A stretch of 64,000 nucleotides of DNA from Candidatus Bathyarchaeota archaeon. Lineage in GTDB: Archaea > Thermoproteota > Bathyarchaeia > Bathyarchaeales > Bathycorpusculaceae. The translations under genes and the position numbers were made by a program. The DNA is taken from NCBI GenBank assembly GCA_017883615.1, contig JADGNF010000023.1:1664-65663 (forward strand), written 5' to 3'. This document shows positions 6,252 to 55,522 of the stretch, piece after piece. How positions within the stretch are numbered: the first letter of the stretch is position 1; every line of letters starts with the position of its first letter. Below the pieces are notes generated by a model. The model was not told the origin of the DNA, made no database searches, and saw only the letters and a program-made list of their open reading frames with translations.

Positions 6252-7679
6252 TTACTTCTTGTTGGTGAGATATTCGTGCATTGCTTTTGCTGCACGTTTA
6301 CCTGCACCCATGGCGCTGATTACTGTGGCTGCACCTGTAGCAACATCTCCGCCTGCGTAAACTCCGTCAAGGCTGGTTTTCCCAACTTCGTTCACTGTTA
6401 TGGTTCCGTGTCTCGGGTCACTTTGTAAGCCTTCGGTTGTGCGTTGTATGATTGGGTTTGGAGTTTGTCCGATGGCGATTATTACTGTGTCAACTTCCAT
6501 GGTGAATTCGCTATCAGGAATGACTTTCACACCGCGTCTGCCTTTCGCATCTGGTTCAGTGAGTTCCATGCAAACGGCTTTCATGCTCTTAACCCAGCCC
6601 CGTTCGTCGCCGTAAAACTCGACTGGAGCCGCCAAGAATTTGCAGACTAAGCCTTCTTCTTCAGCGTTTTCGATTTCTTCGTGTCTAGCTGGCAGTTCGT
6701 CGCGGGAACGTCGGTAAACAAGGCAAACGTCAGAACCCAGACGCATGGAGCATCTTGCGCAGTCCATGGCAACGTTTCCGCCGCCTATGACGACGACGTG
6801 TTTGCCGATGCGGATTGGGGTGTCGTATTCTGGGAACAGATAGCCTTTCATGAGGTTAACACGGATGAGGAATTCGTTGGCTGAGTAGATGCCGCCTAGG
6901 TTTTCGCCTGGGCAACCTGTGAACTGTGGCAAACCTGCGCCGCTTCCGATGAACACGGCGTCGTATCCGCCTTCCTTCATCAGTTCGGGTATAGTGTGAG
7001 TTCTTCCAATCAAGTTACCCAACCGCAAGTCTACACCCAATTTCTGGACGTAATTGACTTCGTTTTGGACGATGGCTTTTGGCAAACGGAACTCTGGAAT
7101 ACCGTAAGAGAGCACTCCTCCTCCGACATGGAGAGCCTCAAACTCGGTGACTTCGTGACCTTGCTTAATTAAGTCCGCTGCTACTGTGAGTCCGGCTGGA
7201 CCAGCGCCGATAACCGCGACTTTCTTGCCTGTTGGCGTGGGTTTGGGGGGAAGTTGTGAGCCATTTTCGCGTTCCCAATCTGCCAGAAACCGTTCTAAAC
7301 GTCCGATGCTGATTGGGTCGCCCATTTTTCCAATGACACACTTGCTTTGGCATTGTACTTCCTGAGGGCATACACGTCCACAGACTGCAGGCAGCGCGTT
7401 TTTTGTCTTTATTGCGGCTATGCCTTCAGCGTATTTCTTTTCTTTGATGCATTTAATGAATGTTGGAATAGGAACTTCCACTGGGCAAGCCGTCATGCAC
7501 TGAGGCTTTGGGCAGGTCAAGCATCTGCTGGCTTCCTCCTGTGCTTCTGCTTCGGTGTATCCTAGGGCAACTTCTTTAAAGTTTTTGGCTCGGACTTTAG
7601 GCTCTTGCTTAGCCATTTCTACAGCTTTCTTGTTGAGTTTTGGTTTAGGCTTTGTTTCCGCCACACTTACAACCTCCAC
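6252..7679 (-). CDS. NfnB/SudA/GltD-like NAD(P)H-dependent FAD/Fe-S oxidoreductase (glutamate synthase small-subunit family)
   Basis: 475 aa. N-terminal Cys clusters (CLTCPKPQCMTACP, CGRVCP..C..C). Two Rossmann GxGxxG motifs (VAVIGAGPAGL, VVVIGGGNVAMD). C-terminal GVYAGGD. GTG start overlaps the end of the upstream NfnA-like gene. Confidence 0.85.
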   Translation of the reverse strand: MEVVSVAETKPKPKLNKKAVEMAKQEPKVRAKNFKEVALGYTEAEAQEEASRCLTCPKPQCMTACPVEVPIPTFIKCIKEKKYAEGIAAIKTKNALPAVCGRVCPQEVQCQSKCVIGKMGDPISIGRLERFLADWERENGSQLPPKPTPTGKKVAVIGAGPAGLTVAADLIKQGHEVTEFEALHVGGGVLSYGIPEFRLPKAIVQNEVNYVQKLGVDLRLGNLIGRTHTIPELMKEGGYDAVFIGSGAGLPQFTGCPGENLGGIYSANEFLIRVNLMKGYLFPEYDTPIRIGKHVVVIGGGNVAMDCARCSMRLGSDVCLVYRRSRDELPARHEEIENAEEEGLVCKFLAAPVEFYGDERGWVKSMKAVCMELTEPDAKGRRGVKVIPDSEFTMEVDTVIIAIGQTPNPIIQRTTEGLQSDPRHGTITVNEVGKTSLDGVYAGGDVATGAATVISAMGAGKRAAKAMHEYLTNKK

Positions 7680-8481
7680 TTGTTTCCCACAATAGTGAAC
7701 CTAAGCGCTCCTCAGGGAGCATTGTGCGTTGACGCAAAATTAACTCTTCAAAGTTGGTTTGGTGACCGTCAAATTCGGGTCCGTCAACGCATCCAAACAT
7801 CATTTTTCCGCCGACGGTGACTCGGCACACACCACACATTCCCATGCCGTCAATCATGATTGGCGTCAAAGTAACGACGGTTGGAATGCCAAAGGGTTTG
7901 GTGATTGCGCTGACATCTCGCATCATGACCACGGGACCCATAACGACACATCGGTCAAATTTTTCTTTCTTCAACAGATCGTTGAGGAAGTCTAAGCCTT
8001 TGTTGCCGTAGGAGCCGTCGTCTGTTGCGACGTAGACTTTGTCGCTTAGCGTCTTGGCTTCTTTTTCCATTATCATGGCCTCTTTGGTTCTTGCGCCCAA
8101 GACGGTGGTGACTTGGTTGCCGGCTGCTTTCATGGCTTTAACTTGGAGCAGTAGGGGTGCGATCATGATGCTTCCGCCGATGCAAAGAACTTTGCCGAAC
8201 TTTTTGATTTCAGAAGGATTGCCCAAAGGTCCAGTGACGTTAAGTATCTCTTGACCTTCGCTATAGCAACCCAGTTCTTTGGTGGTTTTGCCGACTTCGT
8301 GGAAAGCAAACGAAACCGTGCCCTTCTTGGCGTCGTAGCCGCTGATGGTTAACGGTACCCGTTCGCCTTTTTCGTGGGGAACCACTATGAGGAATTGGCC
8401 TGCTTGAGCTTTTGCAGCTATGTCTGGGGCTTCAACTTCGAAGAGGGTTTCTTTGTGTGAAAGCGTTTTCTTGCTAATTAT
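7645..8481 (-). CDS. NfnA/SudB-like ferredoxin-NADP reductase-type subunit (FAD barrel, NAD-binding domain, C-terminal 2Fe-2S Cys cluster)
   Basis: The ORF track starts at GTG 8385 (MVPHEKGERVP...). The same frame stays open for 32 more codons: ISKKTLSHKETLFEVEAPDIAAKAQAGQFLIV. That matches the usual N-terminus of this family. C-terminal CGVCRV...FGCVDGPEF. I place the start at ATA 8479-8481, so the start is uncertain (see findings). Confidence 0.8.
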   Translation of the reverse strand: MISKKTLSHKETLFEVEAPDIAAKAQAGQFLIVVPHEKGERVPLTISGYDAKKGTVSFAFHEVGKTTKELGCYSEGQEILNVTGPLGNPSEIKKFGKVLCIGGSIMIAPLLLQVKAMKAAGNQVTTVLGARTKEAMIMEKEAKTLSDKVYVATDDGSYGNKGLDFLNDLLKKEKFDRCVVMGPVVMMRDVSAITKPFGIPTVVTLTPIMIDGMGMCGVCRVTVGGKMMFGCVDGPEFDGHQTNFEELILRQRTMLPEERLGSLLWETSGGCKCGGNKA

Positions 8482-9707
8482 TTTGTACGTTTTCCTTTCG
8501 CCTCCGTCTTAATAGCTACAGTGCTCTGGGGCATTGCAGCAATCTTTTGGTAGAAAGATTCGAACTTGGGTTTGAATTCGCCTTGACATCTAGGGGATAG
8601 CTCGACGTATTCGAAGCGGTCGCTCAGGCCCATTTTTTGGAGCACATCTCGCAACACTGCCAGTTGGCGTTCTGCGACGTCTCGGCCTTCTTGGAGTTTG
8701 CAGTCTGTTGCGGAGCAAACTACGCCCATGACGCCATCAAATCCCGCTCGGAACGCATTCATGACGTGTACGGGGTCCATTGATTTGAAGCAGGGAACTT
8801 CGAGGACCATAGCGTTTTTGCCTTTGAGCACGCTGTCAGGGTCATCTAAGCCTGCGTACTCGGACCATTGGCAGCTAAAAACCACCACGGCTGGAACCTT
8901 CTTTGCCGCCTTGAGTTTAGTGACTGCGTTTGCGTATTTTTCCATGACGTTGTTGAATTCGAAACCTTTCACTTGGATTGCGTCGTGAGGACAAACCAAC
9001 TGGCAGGCGCCACAGCCGGTGCATTTCTCCATGTCTATTTTGGGGTTTGCGAAAGACTGCGCGGTTATGGCTTTGTAGGGGCAGATGAAAACGCATTTGT
9101 CGCAGCCAACGCATTCTTCGGTGACGTGTACTGCTTTGCGGCTGTACTTTACGACTTTGACGGCGTCTTTGCTGTATCCAAGTTGTTCGAGAACTGCTTG
9201 ACCGAGCATAAGGCGTCGGGTTTCAATCTTTGTGCCTTCCTTCATACGGCAGAACGCGTCTTCGCATTGGACCGAGACTATGTTTTTGATGCCGCCTTGG
9301 AGGACGTTGAAAACGAAGTCTGTTGGAATCCTTCCCGCGCATGGAACACGCAACGGGATATAATTCTTCACGTTTAGACCTTGCTCCTTGAAGATGTCAG
9401 CCATTTCGCCGTCTGTGGGCGAGTTGCCTCGGCACATCATGACAAGGGTGTCGGCTTTCACGGTTTTCTTTTCACAGTTAACGTAGTCTATTAGGTGATT
9501 GTAGTCGTAGTAGGCCATCTCTATGGCGGTGACGGGACAGGCGCTGTAGCATATTCCGCAAACCTGACATTTCTGGTTGTCTATTTCGACTTTGCAGGTT
9601 TCCGCGTCACGGGTTATGGCTTCAAACGGGCACATAGAATAGCAGACTTGACATCGACTACACAGGTCTTGGTTAATTTTTACGGCAGCGAGACACATTT
9701 CACTCAT
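8478..9707 (-). CDS. Fe-S protein: tandem [2x(4Fe-4S) ferredoxin + MvhD/FlpD-like domain] x2 fusion
   Basis: 409 aa with four CxxCxxCxxxCP motifs: CSRCQVCYSMCP, CQVCGICYSACP, CVGCDKCVFICP and CTGCGACQLVCP. Each ferredoxin pair is followed by an MvhD-like block. Block 1: LVMMCRGNS...RVPCAGRI...VSVQCEDAFCRMKEG. Block 2: VVFSCQWSEY...EVPCFKSMD...VVCSATDCKLQEG. Confidence 0.75.
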   Translation of the reverse strand: MSEMCLAAVKINQDLCSRCQVCYSMCPFEAITRDAETCKVEIDNQKCQVCGICYSACPVTAIEMAYYDYNHLIDYVNCEKKTVKADTLVMMCRGNSPTDGEMADIFKEQGLNVKNYIPLRVPCAGRIPTDFVFNVLQGGIKNIVSVQCEDAFCRMKEGTKIETRRLMLGQAVLEQLGYSKDAVKVVKYSRKAVHVTEECVGCDKCVFICPYKAITAQSFANPKIDMEKCTGCGACQLVCPHDAIQVKGFEFNNVMEKYANAVTKLKAAKKVPAVVVFSCQWSEYAGLDDPDSVLKGKNAMVLEVPCFKSMDPVHVMNAFRAGFDGVMGVVCSATDCKLQEGRDVAERQLAVLRDVLQKMGLSDRFEYVELSPRCQGEFKPKFESFYQKIAAMPQSTVAIKTEAKGKRTK

Positions 9708-10061: not shown

Positions 10062-10697
10062 ATGCCTATGGAATTAAGCGCTGACGCACAAAAAGTTCTC
10101 CTCAGAATCTACATAGGTCAGAATATTAGAGATGAGGGAATTCTCCAATCTGAAGTCAAAAACAAGGAGACAGAGGAACTTCTAGCGCGAGGAATCATTG
10201 AGCAAAACCATTGGCATTTACCGGAATTCAAGACTACCAATTATGGAACTGCTGTCGCAAGCGAAATCGTCAATGCAAAGATTGACCAAAATAGAACCGC
10301 CTTAAGCGAAAAATTAAGGCTAATTCCAGAAAAAGTTATTGGGTTTTTTAATAGGAGATACCTATCTAAGAAGCTAAATTTCTCTACCGAAAGAGGTAGA
10401 AACGAAACATTCTTTTACTCTGATTCCTGGGCCGACGCAATACTTTTCGACAGTCGAATTTGGTTCCTATGGAACGCGTTCTTTGAAACGCTAATTCCAT
10501 TTGAACTGTGCACAAAAACACATTACTACGTGTCTACAAAGGGCGGGGCGATCAGAGATTATCGTTTTGTAATTTGCCCTGAAGTGCGGGATTTTGCAAT
10601 TCGTAACTTTGACGCTGTGGATTTTACAACGGTTGAGGAAAATACGCTTTCACTCTACCCATTTCTGCGATTAGCAAAAAGTATTGTCTCCATTTGA
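10062..10697 (+). CDS. hypothetical protein, first gene of the TIR island
   Basis: 211 aa in the AT-richer island. No motif recognised; the N-terminal ~50 aa may be helical or wHTH-like. Its 3' end overlaps the TIR gene by 14 nt. Confidence 0.5.
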   Translation: MPMELSADAQKVLLRIYIGQNIRDEGILQSEVKNKETEELLARGIIEQNHWHLPEFKTTNYGTAVASEIVNAKIDQNRTALSEKLRLIPEKVIGFFNRRYLSKKLNFSTERGRNETFFYSDSWADAILFDSRIWFLWNAFFETLIPFELCTKTHYYVSTKGGAIRDYRFVICPEVRDFAIRNFDAVDFTTVEENTLSLYPFLRLAKSIVSI

Positions 10698-11940
10698 CGA
10701 TGTGGAACAAATTCGAGAACGATTCTATAGTTTGTACAAATCATCAAGATTAAGCGAAGGGCAGGTTGCTGCAATAATTGGTGAAATGAGTAAGAGGAGA
10801 ATCACCTCCGAATTCCAAGGTTTTCTATCAGAATGTAAGCCGTTTACAATTCTGAACCCAACAATGTATGATATTTACTTGGAAAAGGAAATTATTGATG
10901 CGGCAACTACCAACCTTTTAAAAGGAATCGGCACAATTAAAAATTACGAATCGGAATATATCTCATCCAGTTCCAGCGGAGAAAGAGCCAAACATGAATC
11001 TGTAACGCCCAAGTTCCAAGTTTTCATTTGCTACAGAAGAGATACTGGGGAAGATTTTGCAGAACACCTGAAAATTGGTTTGGAAAAGTTCGGCATACGT
11101 GCGTTTCTTGATATCAAAGACATCCCAGAGAAATTTAAAGGAACAGAAAAATGGGTGGATATTCGAGATAATGCCATCCGTGAAAGTCAAACGTTCCTGC
11201 TTATTGTGACTCCCGGTTTTTGCGAATCATCTGAAGTCAAGAAAGAATTGAACGCAGGAGTTTCAATTGATAAGTACATAGTATGTTTCAGGCACAAAGA
11301 CATGCACTCGAATCTGAGAATCGATTTAAAAAACAAAGAAATTGACTTGAGTAAACTGCAACAGATAGTTTTTGATACAAAACAAGATCTACTTCGCAAA
11401 GCCCACAGAATTTTGGTGGAAGAAAAAAACAACTCACCACCTGCTGAAACTGTAAACGAAAATACGGCGTTAAATAATTCATGGGGAATAGTCACAAATA
11501 ATGAAAAACAATCGGACTTATTTTTGACAAAAAATTGGAATCCCTTGCCAGTGGTCAAGTTCAACATATCTCAAAATCTAGCCGATGTTTTTCAATTCCC
11601 GCAGGTAGGGTGGGAAGCGTATAATTACAGTCCATACCAGCTTAAGATCAGGATAAATGTTCGCCCAAAACTCGGGGACAAAAAGCTGTATCCCCTTGCT
11701 GATGATGACATAAATGGAACTAAATCTTACGCAGCCGAACCTAATAGTCCAGTTTGGAAGAACGGTTGTTTTTCATTACCCACAGAGTCTGTGCAAAGCA
11801 AAGCAGACCTTATTCTAGAAATACAATCCACGGTATTTGATGTTAACGAGCCAGAAAAAGGAGAATACAATATGCTGCCCAGCATTTGGAAATACAACCG
11901 AAAAGATAACACATGGGATTATTACCCTCAGGGGTTTTAA
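10684..11940 (+). CDS. TIR-domain protein with unknown N- and C-terminal domains
   Basis: 418 aa. The central block FQVFICYRRDTGEDFAEHLKIGLEKFGIRAFLDIKDI...TFLLIVTPGFCESSEVKKELNAG...YIVCF follows the prokaryotic TIR pattern (vFISYrr-D, G-i-vFlD, vvvllSp-y--S-wc--EL). The TTG start at 10684 is uncertain; GTG 10702 or a later ATG are possible. Confidence 0.8.
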   Translation: MSPFDDVEQIRERFYSLYKSSRLSEGQVAAIIGEMSKRRITSEFQGFLSECKPFTILNPTMYDIYLEKEIIDAATTNLLKGIGTIKNYESEYISSSSSGERAKHESVTPKFQVFICYRRDTGEDFAEHLKIGLEKFGIRAFLDIKDIPEKFKGTEKWVDIRDNAIRESQTFLLIVTPGFCESSEVKKELNAGVSIDKYIVCFRHKDMHSNLRIDLKNKEIDLSKLQQIVFDTKQDLLRKAHRILVEEKNNSPPAETVNENTALNNSWGIVTNNEKQSDLFLTKNWNPLPVVKFNISQNLADVFQFPQVGWEAYNYSPYQLKIRINVRPKLGDKKLYPLADDDINGTKSYAAEPNSPVWKNGCFSLPTESVQSKADLILEIQSTVFDVNEPEKGEYNMLPSIWKYNRKDNTWDYYPQGF

Positions 11941-26572: not shown

Positions 26573-28717
26573 CTAATTCACCTCCCCAGACACTTGAGTT
26601 TCTTTGTCGTTAAACTTTGTGTAACTAAACTTCGCCACTTTCAACAAGGCAGAGTTGCTTACTACAGTTAAGCTGCTTATCGCCATTGCACCAGCTGCAT
26701 ACATGGGACCCTGTGGACCCAACAAACCCGCGGCTGCTATTGGAATCATGACCGAGTTATACGCAAACGCCCAGAACAAATTAGAATTAATCTTCCGCAT
26801 AGTTCGCCTGCTCAACTCAACACTTAAAGCCACGTCACGCAAATCATCCTTGATGAGTACGATTCCGCCAGTCTCTTTGGCAATGTCTGTTCCACTCCCA
26901 ATCGCAATGCCAATGTCCGCCGCCGCCAGCGCAGGCGCATCATTTATGCCGTCGCCAACCATTGCAACCACCTTGCCTTGTGCCTGCAGCTTCTTGATTT
27001 CTTCTTCCTTCTGCCAAGGCAACACATTCGCAATAACCGTGTCAATACCGACCTGCGCCGCAACAGCTCTAGCCGTCACCTCATTATCACCAGTCAACAT
27101 CGCAACCTCCAACTTCATGCTCTTCAACGCATGAATCGCATCCGCAGCATGCTCCTTGGGCAAATCCATAGCCGCTACCACACCCGCAACCGCACCATCC
27201 ACCGCAAGAATCACCGCGGTTTTTCCCTCAGCCTCCAATCCAGCCATATCAGACTCCAACTGAGCAGCAGCGATACCCTTCTCCTGCATGAGCCTACGAT
27301 TTCCCAAGAGCACTCTCCTGCCGCCCACAATGCATTTCACGCCTCTTCCCGGCAAAGCCTCAAACTCTTCCACCTTCTCGAGTTTCGCGTTAGCGGTTTC
27401 TGCGCGTTTCAGGATGGCTTCTGCAAGGGGATGTTCCGAGCTTTTCTCAGCGGAACCCGCCAAAACTAGCACATCCGCTTCTGTAAAGCCATTGTATGTT
27501 TTAACATCGGTCACGGAAGGCTCACCCTTCGTAAGTGTTCCCGTTTTGTCAAAAACTACGATACTGAGTTTTCGTGCGCGCTCCACATATTCCCCGCTAC
27601 GCAACAGCACACCGTACTCAGCGCCTTTTCCGACACCTGCCAAAATCGCAGTCGGAGTTGCGATGCCCATGGCGCATGGACAAGCAACCAAAAGCACAGC
27701 CAATAGCGCAAAGAACGCCGTCGAGAAACCCACGGTTACAAACCAGAAAATGAAAGAGATTGTGGCAGCCGTGAAGACTATAGGAACAAATCTAGCGACC
27801 ACTCGATCCGCAAACCGCTGGACTGGTGCACTAGTCGCTTGGGCCTCTTCGACAAGATGCACAATCTGTGAAAGCGCCGTATCTTCGCCAACTTTGGTCA
27901 CTTTAACTTGTAGCACTCCTGTTTTGTTTATGGTGGCGCCGATAACTTGGCTGCCCACATTCTTTTCGACGGGAATGCTTTCGCCAGTTAGCAGTTTCTC
28001 ATCAACCGAAGAGTAACCAGAAGAGACGATTCCATCTGTGGGAATCTTTTCACCTGGCTTAACAATAATCATGTCGTCAACTTGGAGTTCATCAATTCCA
28101 ACCTCTACCTCTTGTCCACCCCGGATGACTCTAGCGGTTGTAGGCTGCAACTCAAGAAGCTGACGAATAGAAGCGGCAGACTTGCGCCGAATCATCTCCT
28201 CAATATACTTGCCCAACAACACGAAAGCGAGAATCGCGATAGAAACTTCCAGATACCCCGAGCCGCCATCAGCTACGTTTGGGAAAAACGCGTTTAGCGC
28301 CCCATACATCCAACCAGCAAGCACACCGGTTGTGACTAGAACGTCCATGTTTATTTTGCGGTTCCTAAGCGAAAAATACGCGCCTTTAAATATGCTAAAT
28401 CCAGCGATCCAGATAATTGGCAGGGAAACGAGGAAGATTACGAGGCCGTAGACTTCAAGTCCGCCGACGAGTTCGAGCGACATTATTGTGCCTACAAGTC
28501 CAAACAAAGCTACGATCTTGAGGGCTGCAGCAGCAACCGCGCCAATTAGGGTCATTGCGACCCGGCGTTTCATTGCGCGAAGTTCCCGTTCGGGTTGCTC
28601 GTAAACGTCTGCGCATTGTTGGCTGCAGAAGTAGTACCATCGGTCGCCGATTTTGCGTTTGATAGCGGTTTCCTTGTCTACGGTCATGCCGCAGACTGGG
28701 TCTCTGGCTGTAGTCAT
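26573..28717 (-). CDS. copA: copper-translocating P1B-type ATPase with an N-terminal YHS/TRASH domain
   Basis: 714 aa. Contains DPVCGMTV...YYFCSQQC (YHS), TGES, the transmembrane CPC motif ([11 protein letters not shown]), [15 protein letters not shown] and MLTGDN. TAG stop. Confidence 0.95.
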
Positions 28718-28772
28718 GTTAACCCATTCTCCGGAAGTATAGTAGTTACTGGTAGTTATTTCTTATAAGTAT

Positions 28773-28801
28773 ATCTGAAATAGATCTATCTAAATTAGAT
28801 A
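28773..28801. promoter_or_regulatory. two ATCT-N5-AGAT palindromic sites upstream of copA (candidate operator)
   Basis: ATCTgaaatAGAT at 28773-28785 and tATCTaaattAGATa at 28787-28801, with centres 15 bp apart. The same half-sites occur in the regulator promoter at 29062-29076. Confidence 0.35.
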
Positions 28802-29061
28802 CTAATGCTTCAGAGAAAGACACTTGGACAATACTTGCACACGCAAAAAGGATTTGCAGGATCGCCGCAGTTGGCCTTTTTTTGGGAGAAAGGAGAAAAG
28901 GCAGGAAAAAACAGTTTCCTCCACGACGACCTATCTGCCCCCTTAACAACTGACAAGCAAGTCTCCCACTGAAACAGAGGAATCGGGGTAATTAGCGGTC
29001 GAATTAGAACAGCAACGCATCGTTACTCAATAAAACTAAGTTTAAAAGTGTCCTATAAATA

Positions 29062-29076
29062 TATCTTAGCAAGATA
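29062..29076. promoter_or_regulatory. TATCT-N5-AGATA palindrome just downstream of a TATA-like box of the PadR-TRASH gene (candidate autoregulatory operator)
   Basis: TATCTTAGCAAGATA read directly from the sequence. It is preceded by CTATAAATATA (29053-29063) and lies 13 nt upstream of ATG 29089. Confidence 0.4.
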
Positions 29077-29088
29077 GGTTAACGTTTC

Positions 29089-29538
29089 ATGGCTAATTCG
29101 GCGGAGATAAACGAGATAGTCAGCGACTTCAGCCGCGTTTACATACTAACCATACTCCACGAAGGACCAGTGCACGGATACCAAATAATCAGCAGATTCA
29201 AAAAAGTCATAGGCAAAGAGGTTAGCCCGAGCCTTGTCTACCCGTTCCTCAAACAACTCGAGCAAAAAGGACTAGTAACCCACACTTTAAAGCCTGTGGG
29301 CGCTAAGAAGAGAAAAGTTTTCGAACTCACCATCGACGGTAAAGAGTTCAGTGAGCAGTTGTTTAAGCGGTTTTCAGAGCTCATCAGTGTCGCTTTGGAG
29401 CCTAGCTTGGAGGTTTGTGCTCATTGTGGTTGCAAAGTTTACGAAGGCGGCTACACGGAACGCATAAAAGATAAAGAACTGAAGTTTTGCTGCATCCACT
29501 GCGCAGCCTCGTACAAGCAAAGTTTAGGTGTGAAATAA
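29089..29538 (+). CDS. PadR-like winged-helix regulator fused to a C-terminal TRASH metal-binding domain
   Basis: 149 aa. YILTILHEGPVHGYQIISRF...LVYPFLKQLEQKGLV is the PadR signature. C-terminal CAHCGCKV-x17-FCCIHCA is a TRASH-type Cys pattern. Divergent from copA. Confidence 0.8.
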   Translation: MANSAEINEIVSDFSRVYILTILHEGPVHGYQIISRFKKVIGKEVSPSLVYPFLKQLEQKGLVTHTLKPVGAKKRKVFELTIDGKEFSEQLFKRFSELISVALEPSLEVCAHCGCKVYEGGYTERIKDKELKFCCIHCAASYKQSLGVK

Positions 29539-31704: not shown

Positions 31705-32103
31705 ATGCATGAATGGGCATTAGCAGAAGCCGTTATCAAGACGGCATCAGAAATCGCAAAGAAAGAAGGATTAAAGCAGGTTACAGAAGTTAGTGTGAAA
31801 ATCGGCGAGCTCCAACAAATAGAACGACCTATTTTCCGCTTCGCACTCGCCCAGATTAAACCCGATAACTTCAAGGATGCCAAGTTCCGCATATCCACGG
31901 CTAAAACGACTCTTAAATGCCGAGTCTGCGGCAATACGTGGACCTACGACAAGAAGAAGATGGATAAGGCAACGGCGGAAGCTATCCACTTCATCCCCGA
32001 AGTAGCCCACACATATATGAAATGTCCTAAATGTGGCAGTCCCGACTTTGAAATCACCCAAGGGCGCGGCGTCTGGCTTGAAAGCATAAAAGGAGCCCGA
32101 TAA
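31705..32103 (+). CDS. hypA: hydrogenase nickel incorporation protein HypA
   Basis: 132 aa read from ATG 31705. N-terminal MHEWALAE (Ni site) and zinc site CRVCG...CPKCG. The ORF-track N-extension from 31636 is hydrophobic junk. Confidence 0.9.
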   Translation: MHEWALAEAVIKTASEIAKKEGLKQVTEVSVKIGELQQIERPIFRFALAQIKPDNFKDAKFRISTAKTTLKCRVCGNTWTYDKKKMDKATAEAIHFIPEVAHTYMKCPKCGSPDFEITQGRGVWLESIKGAR

Positions 32104-32828
32104 CACTGACTGACCCGCGAACAAGCGTAATTAGCCAACGACTCAAGGGGATAAGACGAATAATCGCAGTTTCAAGCGGCAAAGGCGGGGTGGGCAAAAG
32201 CCTCGTCGCAACCACCCTCGCACTATCGCTGGCGCACAAAGGCTGCAAAGTCGGCTTATTCGACCTTGATTTTACAAGTCCCTCAACACACCTTATACTT
32301 GGAGCAAAAGACGCCCAACCCACTGAAGACAAAGGGTTGATTCCGCCTAAAGTTGAGGGATTAGAATACATGTCGCTTATCTATTACTGCGGAAACGGAG
32401 CAGCTCCTTTGCGTGGAGCAGACACATCCAACGCACTGATTGAGTTGCTTGCTGTTACGTTGTGGGGGGATCTGGATTTTCTTGTTATTGATTCGCCACC
32501 GGGAATTGGCGACGCAATGCTTGACCTGGTCAGGCTGGTGCCTGACATCGAGTTCTTGATTGTGACTACCCCGTCCCAACTGGCATTCGAAACAGTCAAG
32601 AAACAACTCCGACTTCTGCAAGAGCTCAAGATCCCCATTGTGGGCGTTGTGGAAAACATGAAGATGACTGAAGCAAAAACGGTTCAGGAGCAAACCCAGT
32701 GTTTGGGCATAAAATTCCTCACAGAAATCCCGTATGACGCCTCAGTAGAATCAGCCATAGGTAACCCAGACAAACTTTTAGCCACAGAGGTTGCTAAGAA
32801 AATCATGAAGCTATCGCAAACACTATAA
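32100..32828 (+). CDS. Mrp/MinD-family P-loop ATPase (archaeal HypB-type candidate)
   Basis: The ORF-track GTG (32190) lies inside the Walker A motif. The open frame upstream reads TLTDPRTSVISQRLKGIRRIIAVSSGKGGVGKS. Also DLDFTSPS, WGDLDFLVIDSPPGIGD and GVVENM. Start placed at ATA 32100, overlapping the hypA TAA as ATAA, with AAGGAG 5-10 nt upstream. Confidence 0.85.
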   Translation: MTLTDPRTSVISQRLKGIRRIIAVSSGKGGVGKSLVATTLALSLAHKGCKVGLFDLDFTSPSTHLILGAKDAQPTEDKGLIPPKVEGLEYMSLIYYCGNGAAPLRGADTSNALIELLAVTLWGDLDFLVIDSPPGIGDAMLDLVRLVPDIEFLIVTTPSQLAFETVKKQLRLLQELKIPIVGVVENMKMTEAKTVQEQTQCLGIKFLTEIPYDASVESAIGNPDKLLATEVAKKIMKLSQTL

Positions 32829-33896: not shown

Positions 33897-34048
33897 TTGT
33901 TCAAAATCAGGCGTCGTTTGTAGGCGCGCGCATATTCGGTTTCTCTGTTATGTCTTCTTGGGTTTCCATGGTTTTATCTTAAAAATGTCCTAAAAGCTCA
34001 TAAGTGCCCGTTTTCACTAATGTGTTTCTGCACTAGAAGGGGAACAGT

Positions 34049-35545
34049 ATAGGCTGCGGTGTCTTCGGCGCAAAAAACTTCGAGAACCAACCAGTCTTTT
34101 CATACGTGTATTGGGGTCTCCGCGCCGAGAATCATCGAGGGCACCAGTCCCACGGCTTCTTAACCTACAACGAAGGTAAATTTTACAGTTACAAAAATCT
34201 GGATTTGGTTCCTAAACTTAAAACCAGCGTCATCCAAGAATGGTTTGGACGGTTACCAGGCAACATAGGCATAGCTAATGTTCGATACACCACATCGGGC
34301 AAATGCGACGACCAATCAATCATACAGGGCACCCAGCCCATGACCGCGGAAGCCGACGGTGTCAAAATAGCGGTTTCTTTCAACGGTAACATCGTTAACA
34401 CCCAGCAACTCCTTCAAGAAGTCACTAAAGAATTTCCCGAGATAAAATGCGGCTGCGACTCAGACTTAGTTTGCAACAAATTGCTAATAGAGCTCAAGAG
34501 CGGCAAAACCCTCCCCGAAGCAGTTAAAGCTACAATGCTAAGCTTAGATGGAGCGTTCTCGGTTCTTTGCATAATGGGCAACGGAGAATTCTTCGCCTTT
34601 AAAGACCCACACGGCATAAAACCCCTCTGTGCTGGACACAGCCCAGACGGAAAAACTCTTGTTTTTTCATCCGAAACGGTCAGCTTAGACATTAACGGGT
34701 TTGAACGCGACTTCGAACTGGAGCCGGGGGAACTCGTAACCACAACCAAAGACGGGCATTTTGAGCGTCATCAACTCATCGAGAAACCCCAGAAAGCTTT
34801 CTGCGCTTTTGAATATGCGTATTTTGCAAGACCTGACTCGCTTTTCGACGGTAGGTATGTTTACGAAATCCGCGAAGAGTTCGGCAGAAACCTCGTCAAA
34901 GAGTACCCTGAAATCAGCAAGAACTCCGACATCGTGCTTTCGGTGCCTGAAACCGGCGACGACCCAGCTATGGGTGTACATGAGGCTTCAGGTTTAAGAT
35001 GGGAACGAGCCAGCCGACGACACCGTTATGTGACGGAACGTGCATTTATTCTCTTGAACAATGAACGGTACTCGACGATTGACCGCAAAGTAAACATTTT
35101 AGGTTCGAAAGTGGATGGGAAACGTGTCATCGTAACTGAGGACAGCATCGTCCGCGGAGACACAACCAAAGTCATCATTGAGAAGCTGCGCAAGTCTGGT
35201 GCAGAGAAAGTTTACATGTTTGTTACTTTTCCGCGTATCATCGGACCATGCTTCTACGGCATCGACATGTCCACTTATGGACAACTCATAGGCTCTACAC
35301 ATAACGAGGAAGAAATCGCCAAAATCATCGGTGCCGACCAGGTTTGCTACCAATCCATAGAGAACCTTGTGAAAGCGACGGGCTGCAAAAAAGAGGACTT
35401 GTGCATGGCATGCATCACGGGCAAATACCCTACACCCCTAGCTCAAGAATTCGCTGACAAAATGAAGACAAGATTCCTTGCCGGCTACCAAGAAAAAACG
35501 AGGATTTACGAAACCGTCAGCGAATCTCAAGGCGTACAGTGGTAA
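34049..35545 (+). CDS. purF: amidophosphoribosyltransferase
   Basis: Ntn-amidotransferase N-terminus (I/M)GCGVFGAKN...YWGLRAENHRGHQSHG, and a PRTase motif VIVTEDSIVRGDT. The catalytic Cys codon (34055) lies upstream of the ORF-track GTG start (34106). Start placed at ATA 34049 (see findings). Confidence 0.9.
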   Translation: MGCGVFGAKNFENQPVFSYVYWGLRAENHRGHQSHGFLTYNEGKFYSYKNLDLVPKLKTSVIQEWFGRLPGNIGIANVRYTTSGKCDDQSIIQGTQPMTAEADGVKIAVSFNGNIVNTQQLLQEVTKEFPEIKCGCDSDLVCNKLLIELKSGKTLPEAVKATMLSLDGAFSVLCIMGNGEFFAFKDPHGIKPLCAGHSPDGKTLVFSSETVSLDINGFERDFELEPGELVTTTKDGHFERHQLIEKPQKAFCAFEYAYFARPDSLFDGRYVYEIREEFGRNLVKEYPEISKNSDIVLSVPETGDDPAMGVHEASGLRWERASRRHRYVTERAFILLNNERYSTIDRKVNILGSKVDGKRVIVTEDSIVRGDTTKVIIEKLRKSGAEKVYMFVTFPRIIGPCFYGIDMSTYGQLIGSTHNEEEIAKIIGADQVCYQSIENLVKATGCKKEDLCMACITGKYPTPLAQEFADKMKTRFLAGYQEKTRIYETVSESQGVQW

Positions 35546-55443: not shown

Positions 55444-55522
55444 TGGTAGCGGGGAGTAGATTTGAACTACTGATCTCTGGGTTATGAGCCCAGCGGGTTA
55501 ATCCTGGCTACCCCACCCCGCT
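55444..55522 (-). tRNA. initiator tRNA-Met (anticodon CAT), CCA encoded
   Basis: The minus strand reads AGCGGGGTGGGGTAGCCAGGATTAACCCGCTGGGCTCATAACCCAGAGATCAGTAGTTCAAATCTACTCCCCGCTACCA. It has an A1:U72 pair, three consecutive G:C pairs at the bottom of the anticodon stem (CTGGG/CCCAG) and the loop CTCATAA. These are hallmarks of archaeal initiator tRNA. Confidence 0.9.

Follow-up and report, generated by a model that had tools for sequence, protein, structure and literature searches.

The closest described counterpart of the protein considered here is the Mrp/MinD-type HypB of Thermococcus kodakarensis (Tk-mHypB; structure 3vx3, HypA-HypB complexes 5aun-5auq), a protein of ~240 amino acids (aa) that carries a GKGGVGKS motif and an N-terminal xDPRxxxIxxRL signature, lacks a CxxC pair and is encoded directly after hypA. 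A gene with all of these characteristics is present in a 64,000-nucleotide stretch of Candidatus Bathyarchaeota archaeon (assembly GCA_017883615.1, contig JADGNF010000023.1, positions 1,664 to 65,663 of the forward strand), referred to below as the window, whose own numbering is used for all positions. This hypB differs from Tk-mHypB in its host, which is Bathyarchaeia-like and not a Thermococcus, and in having no ATG, GTG or TTG start. The explanation favored here, which we consider probable, is that the gene is intact and functional, has lost all of its canonical starts and is translated from a near-cognate codon at the hypA stop.

Archaeal start-codon selection uses the eukaryote-like factors aIF1, aIF1A and aIF2. 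In bacteria, rare non-canonical starts have been retained for regulation, as in the AUU codons of infC and pcnB of Escherichia coli. The hypB of the window resembles these two genes in placing a near-cognate codon and a good Shine-Dalgarno sequence before an ordinary conserved protein; unlike them, its ATA/CTG arrangement is found in one genome and in a single parallel case (locus L173, described below) instead of being conserved in a clade, and it is not known to take part in a regulatory loop. On the side of translational coupling, termination-reinitiation (TeRe) is experimentally established in Haloferax volcanii and E. coli for genes whose stop and start overlap (Huber et al., 2019; PMC6728339). 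The hypA-hypB junction is comparable to the ATGA/GTGA pairs of that work in that the genes are co-directional, the spacing is -4 to +5 nucleotides (nt) and a Shine-Dalgarno sequence lies inside the upstream gene, whereas it departs from them in that its overlap codon is ATA, near-cognate reinitiation falling outside the passages on such pairs (Huber et al., 2019). Additionally, near-cognate sites made up ~30% of the putative alternative initiation sites in a ribosome profiling study of H. volcanii and were not followed there (PMC7261190). Both non-canonical starts and coupling of the ATGA type are already known.

The features of the locus are collected in Table 1. The hypA product matches the Pfam HypA family (E 1e-25) and NCBIfam NF003008 (E 5e-50). 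Behind it, the open part of the hypB frame begins at 32082 with KHKRSPITL, followed by TDPRTSVIS, QRLKGIRR and IIAVSSGKGGVGKS; the translation of this Mrp-type frame downstream of hypA is ...RSPITLTDPRTSVISQRLKGIRRIIAVSSGKGGVGKS. The preliminary description of this DNA had closed the frame with a TAA at 32088-32090, but these bases are AAA and the true stop is the upstream TGA. Its central observation was borne out by translation, since a search for ATG, GTG and TTG in the 36 codons that separate 32082 from GTG 32190 found none, and GTG 32190 is indeed the Val of GKGGVGKS. The ATAA overlap, the AAGGAG motif and the eight ATGA/GTGA tetranucleotides that it listed (2501, 24744, 37007, 38993, 43081, 59951, 62245 and 63785) are likewise present in the sequence; ATAA itself occurs 210 times on the plus strand of the window. 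The absence of canonical starts over 36 sense codons has a chance probability of (58/61)^36 ~0.16 and is not rare alone. The missing start is significant because of homology: the 28 codons before GTG 32190 are conserved, P-loop included, and a canonical start is found in ~116 of 120 related junctions.

Table 1. Coordinates of the genes, candidate starts and motifs discussed in the text (window numbering).
Feature	Position	Strand	Details
NfnA/PyrK-like gene	7645-8508	-	called from GTG 8385 as 246 aa (P0242); no canonical start before the conserved N-terminus
hypA, 132 aa	31705-32103	+	N-terminus MHE; two CxxC zinc motifs; C-terminus ...ESIKGAR; stop TAA 32101-32103
TGA, in-frame stop closing the hypB frame upstream	32079-32081	+	from the translation
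AAGGAG, Shine-Dalgarno-like	32090-32095	+	within the end of hypA (codons K G A); distance 4 nt to ATA 32100, 10 nt to CTG 32106
ATA, candidate near-cognate start of hypB	32100-32102	+	overlaps the hypA TAA as ATAA; aligned with ATG in the three closest relatives
CTG, candidate near-cognate start of hypB	32106-32108	+	where family members typically start; the Asp of DPR follows two codons later
hypB coding region, Mrp/MinD-type	32100-32828	+	242 aa from ATA, 240 aa from CTG 32106; stop TAA 32826-32828
Deviant Walker A motif (P-loop) GKGGVGKS	32178-32201	+	signature Lys AAA 32181; aligned to GKGGVGKS of 3vx3
GTG, first canonical start in the hypB frame	32190-32192	+	Val inside the P-loop GKGGVGKS; start of the 212-aa database call P0001
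ATA, candidate start of purF	34049-34051	+	two codons before the catalytic Cys TGC 34055-34057; no canonical start between TAG 34034-34036 and the Cys

The identity of the hypB product is indicated by its match to Tk-mHypB (3vx3, chain A; E 1.1e-68, 234 bits), in which residues 10-245 of the query, taken from 32082, align with residues 4-245 of the chain. The alignment runs from the Thr at 32109 to the C-terminus and puts Met1 of 3vx3 in register with ATA 32100; the next structure match is an iron-sulfur (Fe-S) carrier (8zkc, 1.2e-39), and the MinD matches are at 1e-11 or weaker. Like the Mrp/NBP35/ApbC Fe-S carrier ATPases, the protein belongs to Pfam family PF10609 (E 7e-56). Unlike them, it scores far below the equivalog cut-offs (MrpORP, E 1e-48 and 166 bits against 450; ApbC, E 8e-46 and 157 bits against 348), has three isolated Cys but no CxxC pair in its translation, and stands in a hypA context. 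Because of these scores and of the missing CxxC pair, the product is classed with the ATPase-type HypB proteins rather than with the Fe-S carriers. The adjacency to hypA that goes with a Mrp/MinD-type HypB is found in the window as well as in six related loci (L081-L086) and in ~120 metagenome loci. Apart from P0001, the best 120 database homologues share 72–88% identity with the protein, almost all have 240-242 aa (224-279 aa overall) and several are named Bathyarchaeota or Bathyarchaeia. A contig scan using the HypB protein and the SGKGGVGK pattern returned only generic bacterial Mrp/ApbC genes with 32–44% identity and no orthologues. Judged by these comparisons, the region from 32100 or 32106 to 32828 encodes an ordinary, full-length Mrp/MinD-type HypB, the predicted ATPase partner of the nickel chaperone HypA, whose Ni handling it would enhance in an ATP-dependent manner during [NiFe]-hydrogenase maturation.

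The N-terminus of this protein lies before the first canonical start, as the preliminary description had held. Besides the 3vx3 alignment, 115 homologues of 236-246 aa begin M/V-x-DPRT(S), and the deviant Walker A sequence SGKGGVGKS (32175-32201) is complete only with initiation upstream of GTG 32190, which places the gene among those whose conserved and essential N-terminus precedes the first ATG, GTG or TTG. A family that normally starts after the P-loop, the outcome that would have spoken for the short form, was not seen: the orthologues of 236-246 aa include the P-loop N-terminus. The public protein collection holds the hypB of the window only as the 212-aa P0001, which begins MGKS and is without the signature Lys. 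Translation from GTG 32190 as in this database call is therefore extremely improbable: it is the first canonical start and thus the choice of the gene caller, but its product loses the GKGG of the deviant Walker A motif with the signature Lys, all homologues of 236-246 aa contain the N-terminus that it omits, and the 28 codons upstream of it are conserved at the protein level with mostly synonymous change.

The hypA-hypB junction was compared with that of the three closest relatives (L081, L082 and L083; 84–88% aa identity), of which L082 is syntenic from PadR through purF. These read GGAGC(C/T)CGATGAA where the window has GGAGCCCGATAAC (CGATGAA versus CGATAAC), so that their ATGA overlap with hypA occupies the exact column of the ATAA. 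The junction codons are ATG AAG GTG ACA GAC in L081 and ATG AAC CTG ACA GAC in L082 and L083, compared with ATA ACA CTG ACT GAC in the window. In the more distant L084-L086 the start is a GTG just past the hypA stop, and in L084 this GTG falls in the column of CTG 32106, a column in which L081 too has GTG. AAAGGAG is also present in L081-L086, loci that were retrieved by protein, independently of the motif. Two histories, a change of ATG into ATA starting from an ancestor similar to L082 and a change of GTG/TTG into CTG in a line without any earlier ATG, were compared with a hypA+hypB+purF phylogeny, in which the window, L081 and L082 form a trichotomy (7, 6 and 4 informative sites per topology).

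A further 120 loci were taken from a metagenome scan with a hypA C-terminal pattern, and ~120 junctions with the DPR motif were evaluated. A canonical in-frame start is present in 116 of them, the one nearest to DPR being ATG in 76, GTG in 20 and TTG in 20. It lies between -11 and +8 nt from the hypA stop in all but one locus (which has an extra distant in-frame TTG/GTG), and tight hypA-hypB coupling is for this reason regarded as a property of the family. The four junctions without a canonical start are those of the window, of L173 and of the identical pair L155/L202. L173 (~535-580) reads ATA AGC CTG GTT GAT and represents an independent lineage, its relatives having GTGA...TTG or ATG, whereas L155/L202 read AGC ACG TTT GAC where their relatives show ACG ATG GAC. 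For the comparison of registers the junctions were collapsed to 95 unique ones. The register of the window is the commonest among them, and in this register an ATA codon in frame spans the hypA stop, as ATAA or ATAG, at 32 junctions; the true start of 30 of these is a canonical codon standing one or two codons before the Asp. The ATAA is therefore an ordinary, incidental junction of the family. In the column of CTG 32106, on the other hand, L081, L084 and the majority of the 95 unique junctions have GTG, ATG or TTG. The earlier proposal that ATAA mirrors the ATGA overlaps consequently stands only in part: the ATA is in the ATG column of the three closest relatives, but the canonical starts at 30 of the 32 ATA junctions lend no support to functional mimicry. 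The same proposal took ATA as the sole candidate and left out CTG 32106, the family-typical start column.

The sequence before GTG 32190 has the pattern of substitution of a coding region. Over the whole gene, the ratio of non-synonymous to synonymous divergence (dN/dS) between the window and L081, L082 or L083 is 0.07–0.09, compared with 0.06–0.09 among the relatives with intact starts. For codons 3-30, all of which precede GTG 32190, dN/dS is 0.15–0.22 and matches that of the intact-start relatives (8 synonymous and 4 non-synonymous changes relative to L081). Additionally, the protein shows 0 deviations at 118 columns with a conservation of at least 95% across 115 homologues, whose own deviations have a median of 1 and a maximum of 4. 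Because of the low dN/dS in codons 3-30 and the lack of deviations at conserved columns, the part of hypB upstream of its first canonical start is read as having evolved as coding sequence under purifying selection, with no gene decay.

Apart from this, the synonymous divergence itself is uneven along hypB. In the first ~28 codons (32106-32189) dS is 0.14–0.51, two to six times lower than the 1.06–1.75 of the remainder in comparisons among the window, L081 and L082/L083. The reduction is barely seen in the closest pair, L082 and L083 (0.14 versus 0.21), and in comparisons with the distant L084 dS is 0.7–1.7. The low values in the early codons suggest an mRNA constraint around the start.

Another gene of the window, purF, has a similar peculiarity. 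It was called from GTG 34106 (34106-35545) as a protein of 479 aa (P0241) without the catalytic Cys, whereas the Cys encoded by TGC 34055, upstream of that GTG, aligns with Cys1 of mature Bacillus subtilis PurF (1ao0). After TAG 34034-34036 the frame reads AAG GGG AAC AGT ATA GGC TGC, in which ATA is the sole plausible near-cognate codon. ATA GGC TGC is found in 10 of the 10 purF loci for which DNA was available (the window, L081, L082, L084-L086, L157 and L211-L213; Bathyarchaeia), in each case with an AAGG(G) motif 6–9 nt upstream, and the sequence farther upstream is unconserved. No canonical start follows the preceding stop in the six loci whose upstream frame was tabulated. Among the closest 119 PurF homologues, 17 begin MGCG, 41 have variable, non-homologous extensions ending ...IGCG (with one possible exception, P0358, ...GIECG) and 61 are truncated calls without the Cys. 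Met and Ile alternate here at position one, which is the hallmark of a conserved ATA start, and purF looks like the carrier of a clade-wide one, comparable in its conservation to the AUU of infC. Initiation at ATA is thereby made credible in this lineage independently of hypB.

Taken together, these comparisons show, at the level of sequence, a gene that is intact and conserved, whose N-terminus precedes its first canonical start, whose relatives have canonical codons at both candidate columns, and whose lineage keeps an ATA before purF. From this we infer initiation at the hypB junction and help from coupling to hypA. Ribosomes finishing hypA would terminate at UAA 32101-32103, and the AAGGAG in the last hypA codons would retain the small subunit. 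The initiator tRNA might then pair with AUA 32100 at the overlap, with a third-position mismatch, reinitiating as at the AUGA of the relatives, or alternatively with CUG 32106, with a first-position mismatch like that of GUG and UUG. The odds between the two codons are about even. The stop-start proximity of a TeRe pair is found for both, the ATAA overlapping at -4 nt and the CTG lying at +5 nt when counted from the first stop base, downstream of the AAGGAG; the distance from GGAG to CTG matches that of the relatives with GTG in this column. Translational coupling or termination-reinitiation would in either case drive the near-cognate start, and the output of hypB would probably be below that of the relatives with ATG, as general near-cognate efficiencies suggest.

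Several observations weigh against translation from a near-cognate codon. In E. coli, CUG and AUA reach at most ~1% of the activity of AUG, and the spacing of 4 nt from GGAG to ATA is short for Shine-Dalgarno-led initiation. No non-canonical codon is conserved among the hypB orthologues, the ATA..CTG arrangement being shared only by L173, and only three independent junctions among ~120 are without a canonical start, which implies that selection normally retains one and that this locus could be a defective exception. An RNA structure that translation of hypA could open, and that could serve as a dedicated coupling element, was sought at the junction and no significant fold was found (z = -0.14); the Rfam scan of the window returned two tRNAs only. 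Moreover, dS to the nearest relatives is ~1, so that a recent loss of the start would be invisible in dN/dS, and both the expression and the N-terminus of the hypB product are predictions. Some of these points are also those of a start-loss allele, in which the canonical start was recently mutated and hypB is silent or nearly so, as an incipient pseudogene or a strongly down-regulated gene whose reading frame has not yet decayed. The window would then be the outlier among junctions of which ~97% retain a canonical start, and a need for HypB is not evident here, as no [NiFe]-hydrogenase catalytic (large) subunit was found among the window open reading frames scanned. Such an allele is nevertheless unlikely, considering that the reading frame is pristine at all of the conserved columns and adjoins an intact hypA, that the lineage relies on ATA for purF, and that L173 has independently reached the same ATA..CTG state.

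The remaining explanations concern the sequence and the mode of translation. A single G-to-A difference turns ATGA into ATAA, and an organism that truly has ATG at 32100 (G at 32102), like its closest relatives, would appear as it does here through an error of sequencing, assembly or consensus calling, or because the contig carries an allele of a minority of the population; the contig is metagenome-derived, has a single representation in the collection, and no second assembly of the junction was present among the 120 loci scanned. We hold this to be rather improbable: the following codon differs from that of all relatives as well (ACA versus AAC/AAG), which points to ordinary divergence and not to an isolated miscall, and the two other genes of the contig with non-canonical starts recur in independent assemblies, so that errors at starts are no general trait of the contig. 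A hypB start would be dispensable if a -1 frameshift on the A-run at 32088-32091 (A AAA G), before the hypA stop, produced a HypA-HypB fusion of ~41 kDa with the junction peptide ...ESIKRSPITLTDPR. The hypB frame is open from 19 nt ahead of the hypA stop, tRNA-Lys could re-pair from AAA 32089-32091 to AAA 32088-32090, and HypA forms a complex with the Mrp-type HypB in T. kodakarensis (5aun-5auq), but the site has neither a canonical X_XXY_YYZ heptamer nor a stimulatory structure, the relatives hold hypB in all three registers relative to hypA (offsets -11 to +8), and 0 of the 120 best homologues is a fusion (lengths 224-279 aa). The frameshift is accordingly very improbable. It was rejected for want of a heptamer, a structure and fusion homologues, and the start at GTG 32190 because it destroys the P-loop.

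A third gene of the window, NfnA-like, was also called short. Its conserved N-terminus YKIISKKTL... aligns at residue 8 of Pyrococcus furiosus NfnI-S (5jca_S) and lies upstream of GTG 8385. After TAA 8511-8509 the frame reads GAC GGA GGC GAA AGG AAA ACG TAC AAA ATA ATT, without a canonical start, and offers only ACG 8490, ATA 8481 and ATT 8478 as near-cognate candidates, with GGAGG 10 nt before the ACG. Three independent assemblies (L207-L209; 96% identity) share the TAA and the missing ATG, whereas in other lineages the gene starts MYKIV, with ATG in the ACG column. It is flanked by a GltD/NfnB-like gene (6252-7679) and a FlpD-ferredoxin gene (8478-9707).

At least three of the ~65 genes of the window, namely hypB, purF and the NfnA-like gene, are thus without a canonical start. 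This raises a wider proposal, of a Bathyarchaeia lineage with relaxed start selection in which near-cognate starts (AUA, perhaps CUG and ACG) are routine and heritable, the AUA of purF, kept by most of its 119 closest homologues, possibly serves an infC-like regulation and gene callers mis-set the ends of proteins. We regard it as possible and as falling just short of probable; a habit of near-cognate starts has support at purF, is suggested by the NfnA-like gene and is unproven as a rule for the genome as a whole. No report of ATA or CTG starts in Bathyarchaeia, or for hypB or purF, was found in the literature. An unusual initiator tRNA was sought in the window, and the tRNA-Met encountered there is normal in its anticodon and gives no explanation for ATA starts. 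This tRNA-Met (55444-55522, minus strand) shows archaeal initiator hallmarks, with the pairs A1:U72 and G29-31:C39-41, an encoded CCA and the normal CAU anticodon.

If the wider proposal is true, near-cognate starts would lead standard callers to truncate or wrongly extend such proteins systematically. Similar truncations are seen in related genomes, with purF calls of 445-480 aa and NfnA-like calls of 178-273 aa, and the problem recurs in many related metagenome proteins (61 of the 119 PurF homologues). Metabolic reconstructions and structure predictions built on the truncated calls are wrong, as they contain a HypB without P-loop, a PurF without catalytic Cys and an NfnA-like protein without its first strands. 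An AUA/CUG-tolerant lineage would also be a natural system for studying the stringency of start-codon selection, and whether termination-reinitiation lowers it. With respect to nickel delivery, coupling of hypB to hypA through a weak start would keep the HypB:HypA ratio low, which bears on the stoichiometry of the nickel chaperones.

The surroundings of the locus provide some minor observations. A scan for bacterial-type promoters and terminators around hypA-hypB was uninformative, the models being bacterial and the host archaeal. The stretch 26573-29538, just upstream of the rotamase-hypA-hypB cluster, encodes a heavy-metal ATPase of the P type (714 aa) and a regulator of the PadR family; the order PadR-PMT-rotamase-hypA-hypB is conserved in L082 and L085, an ATPase is also present in L084 and L085, and this arrangement hints at a metal-handling neighborhood around hypA-hypB. 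Farther away, an open reading frame of 418 aa on the plus strand (10684-11940) encodes a TIR domain (PF13676, E 8e-12), which is unusual in an archaeal housekeeping neighborhood and may be related to defense.

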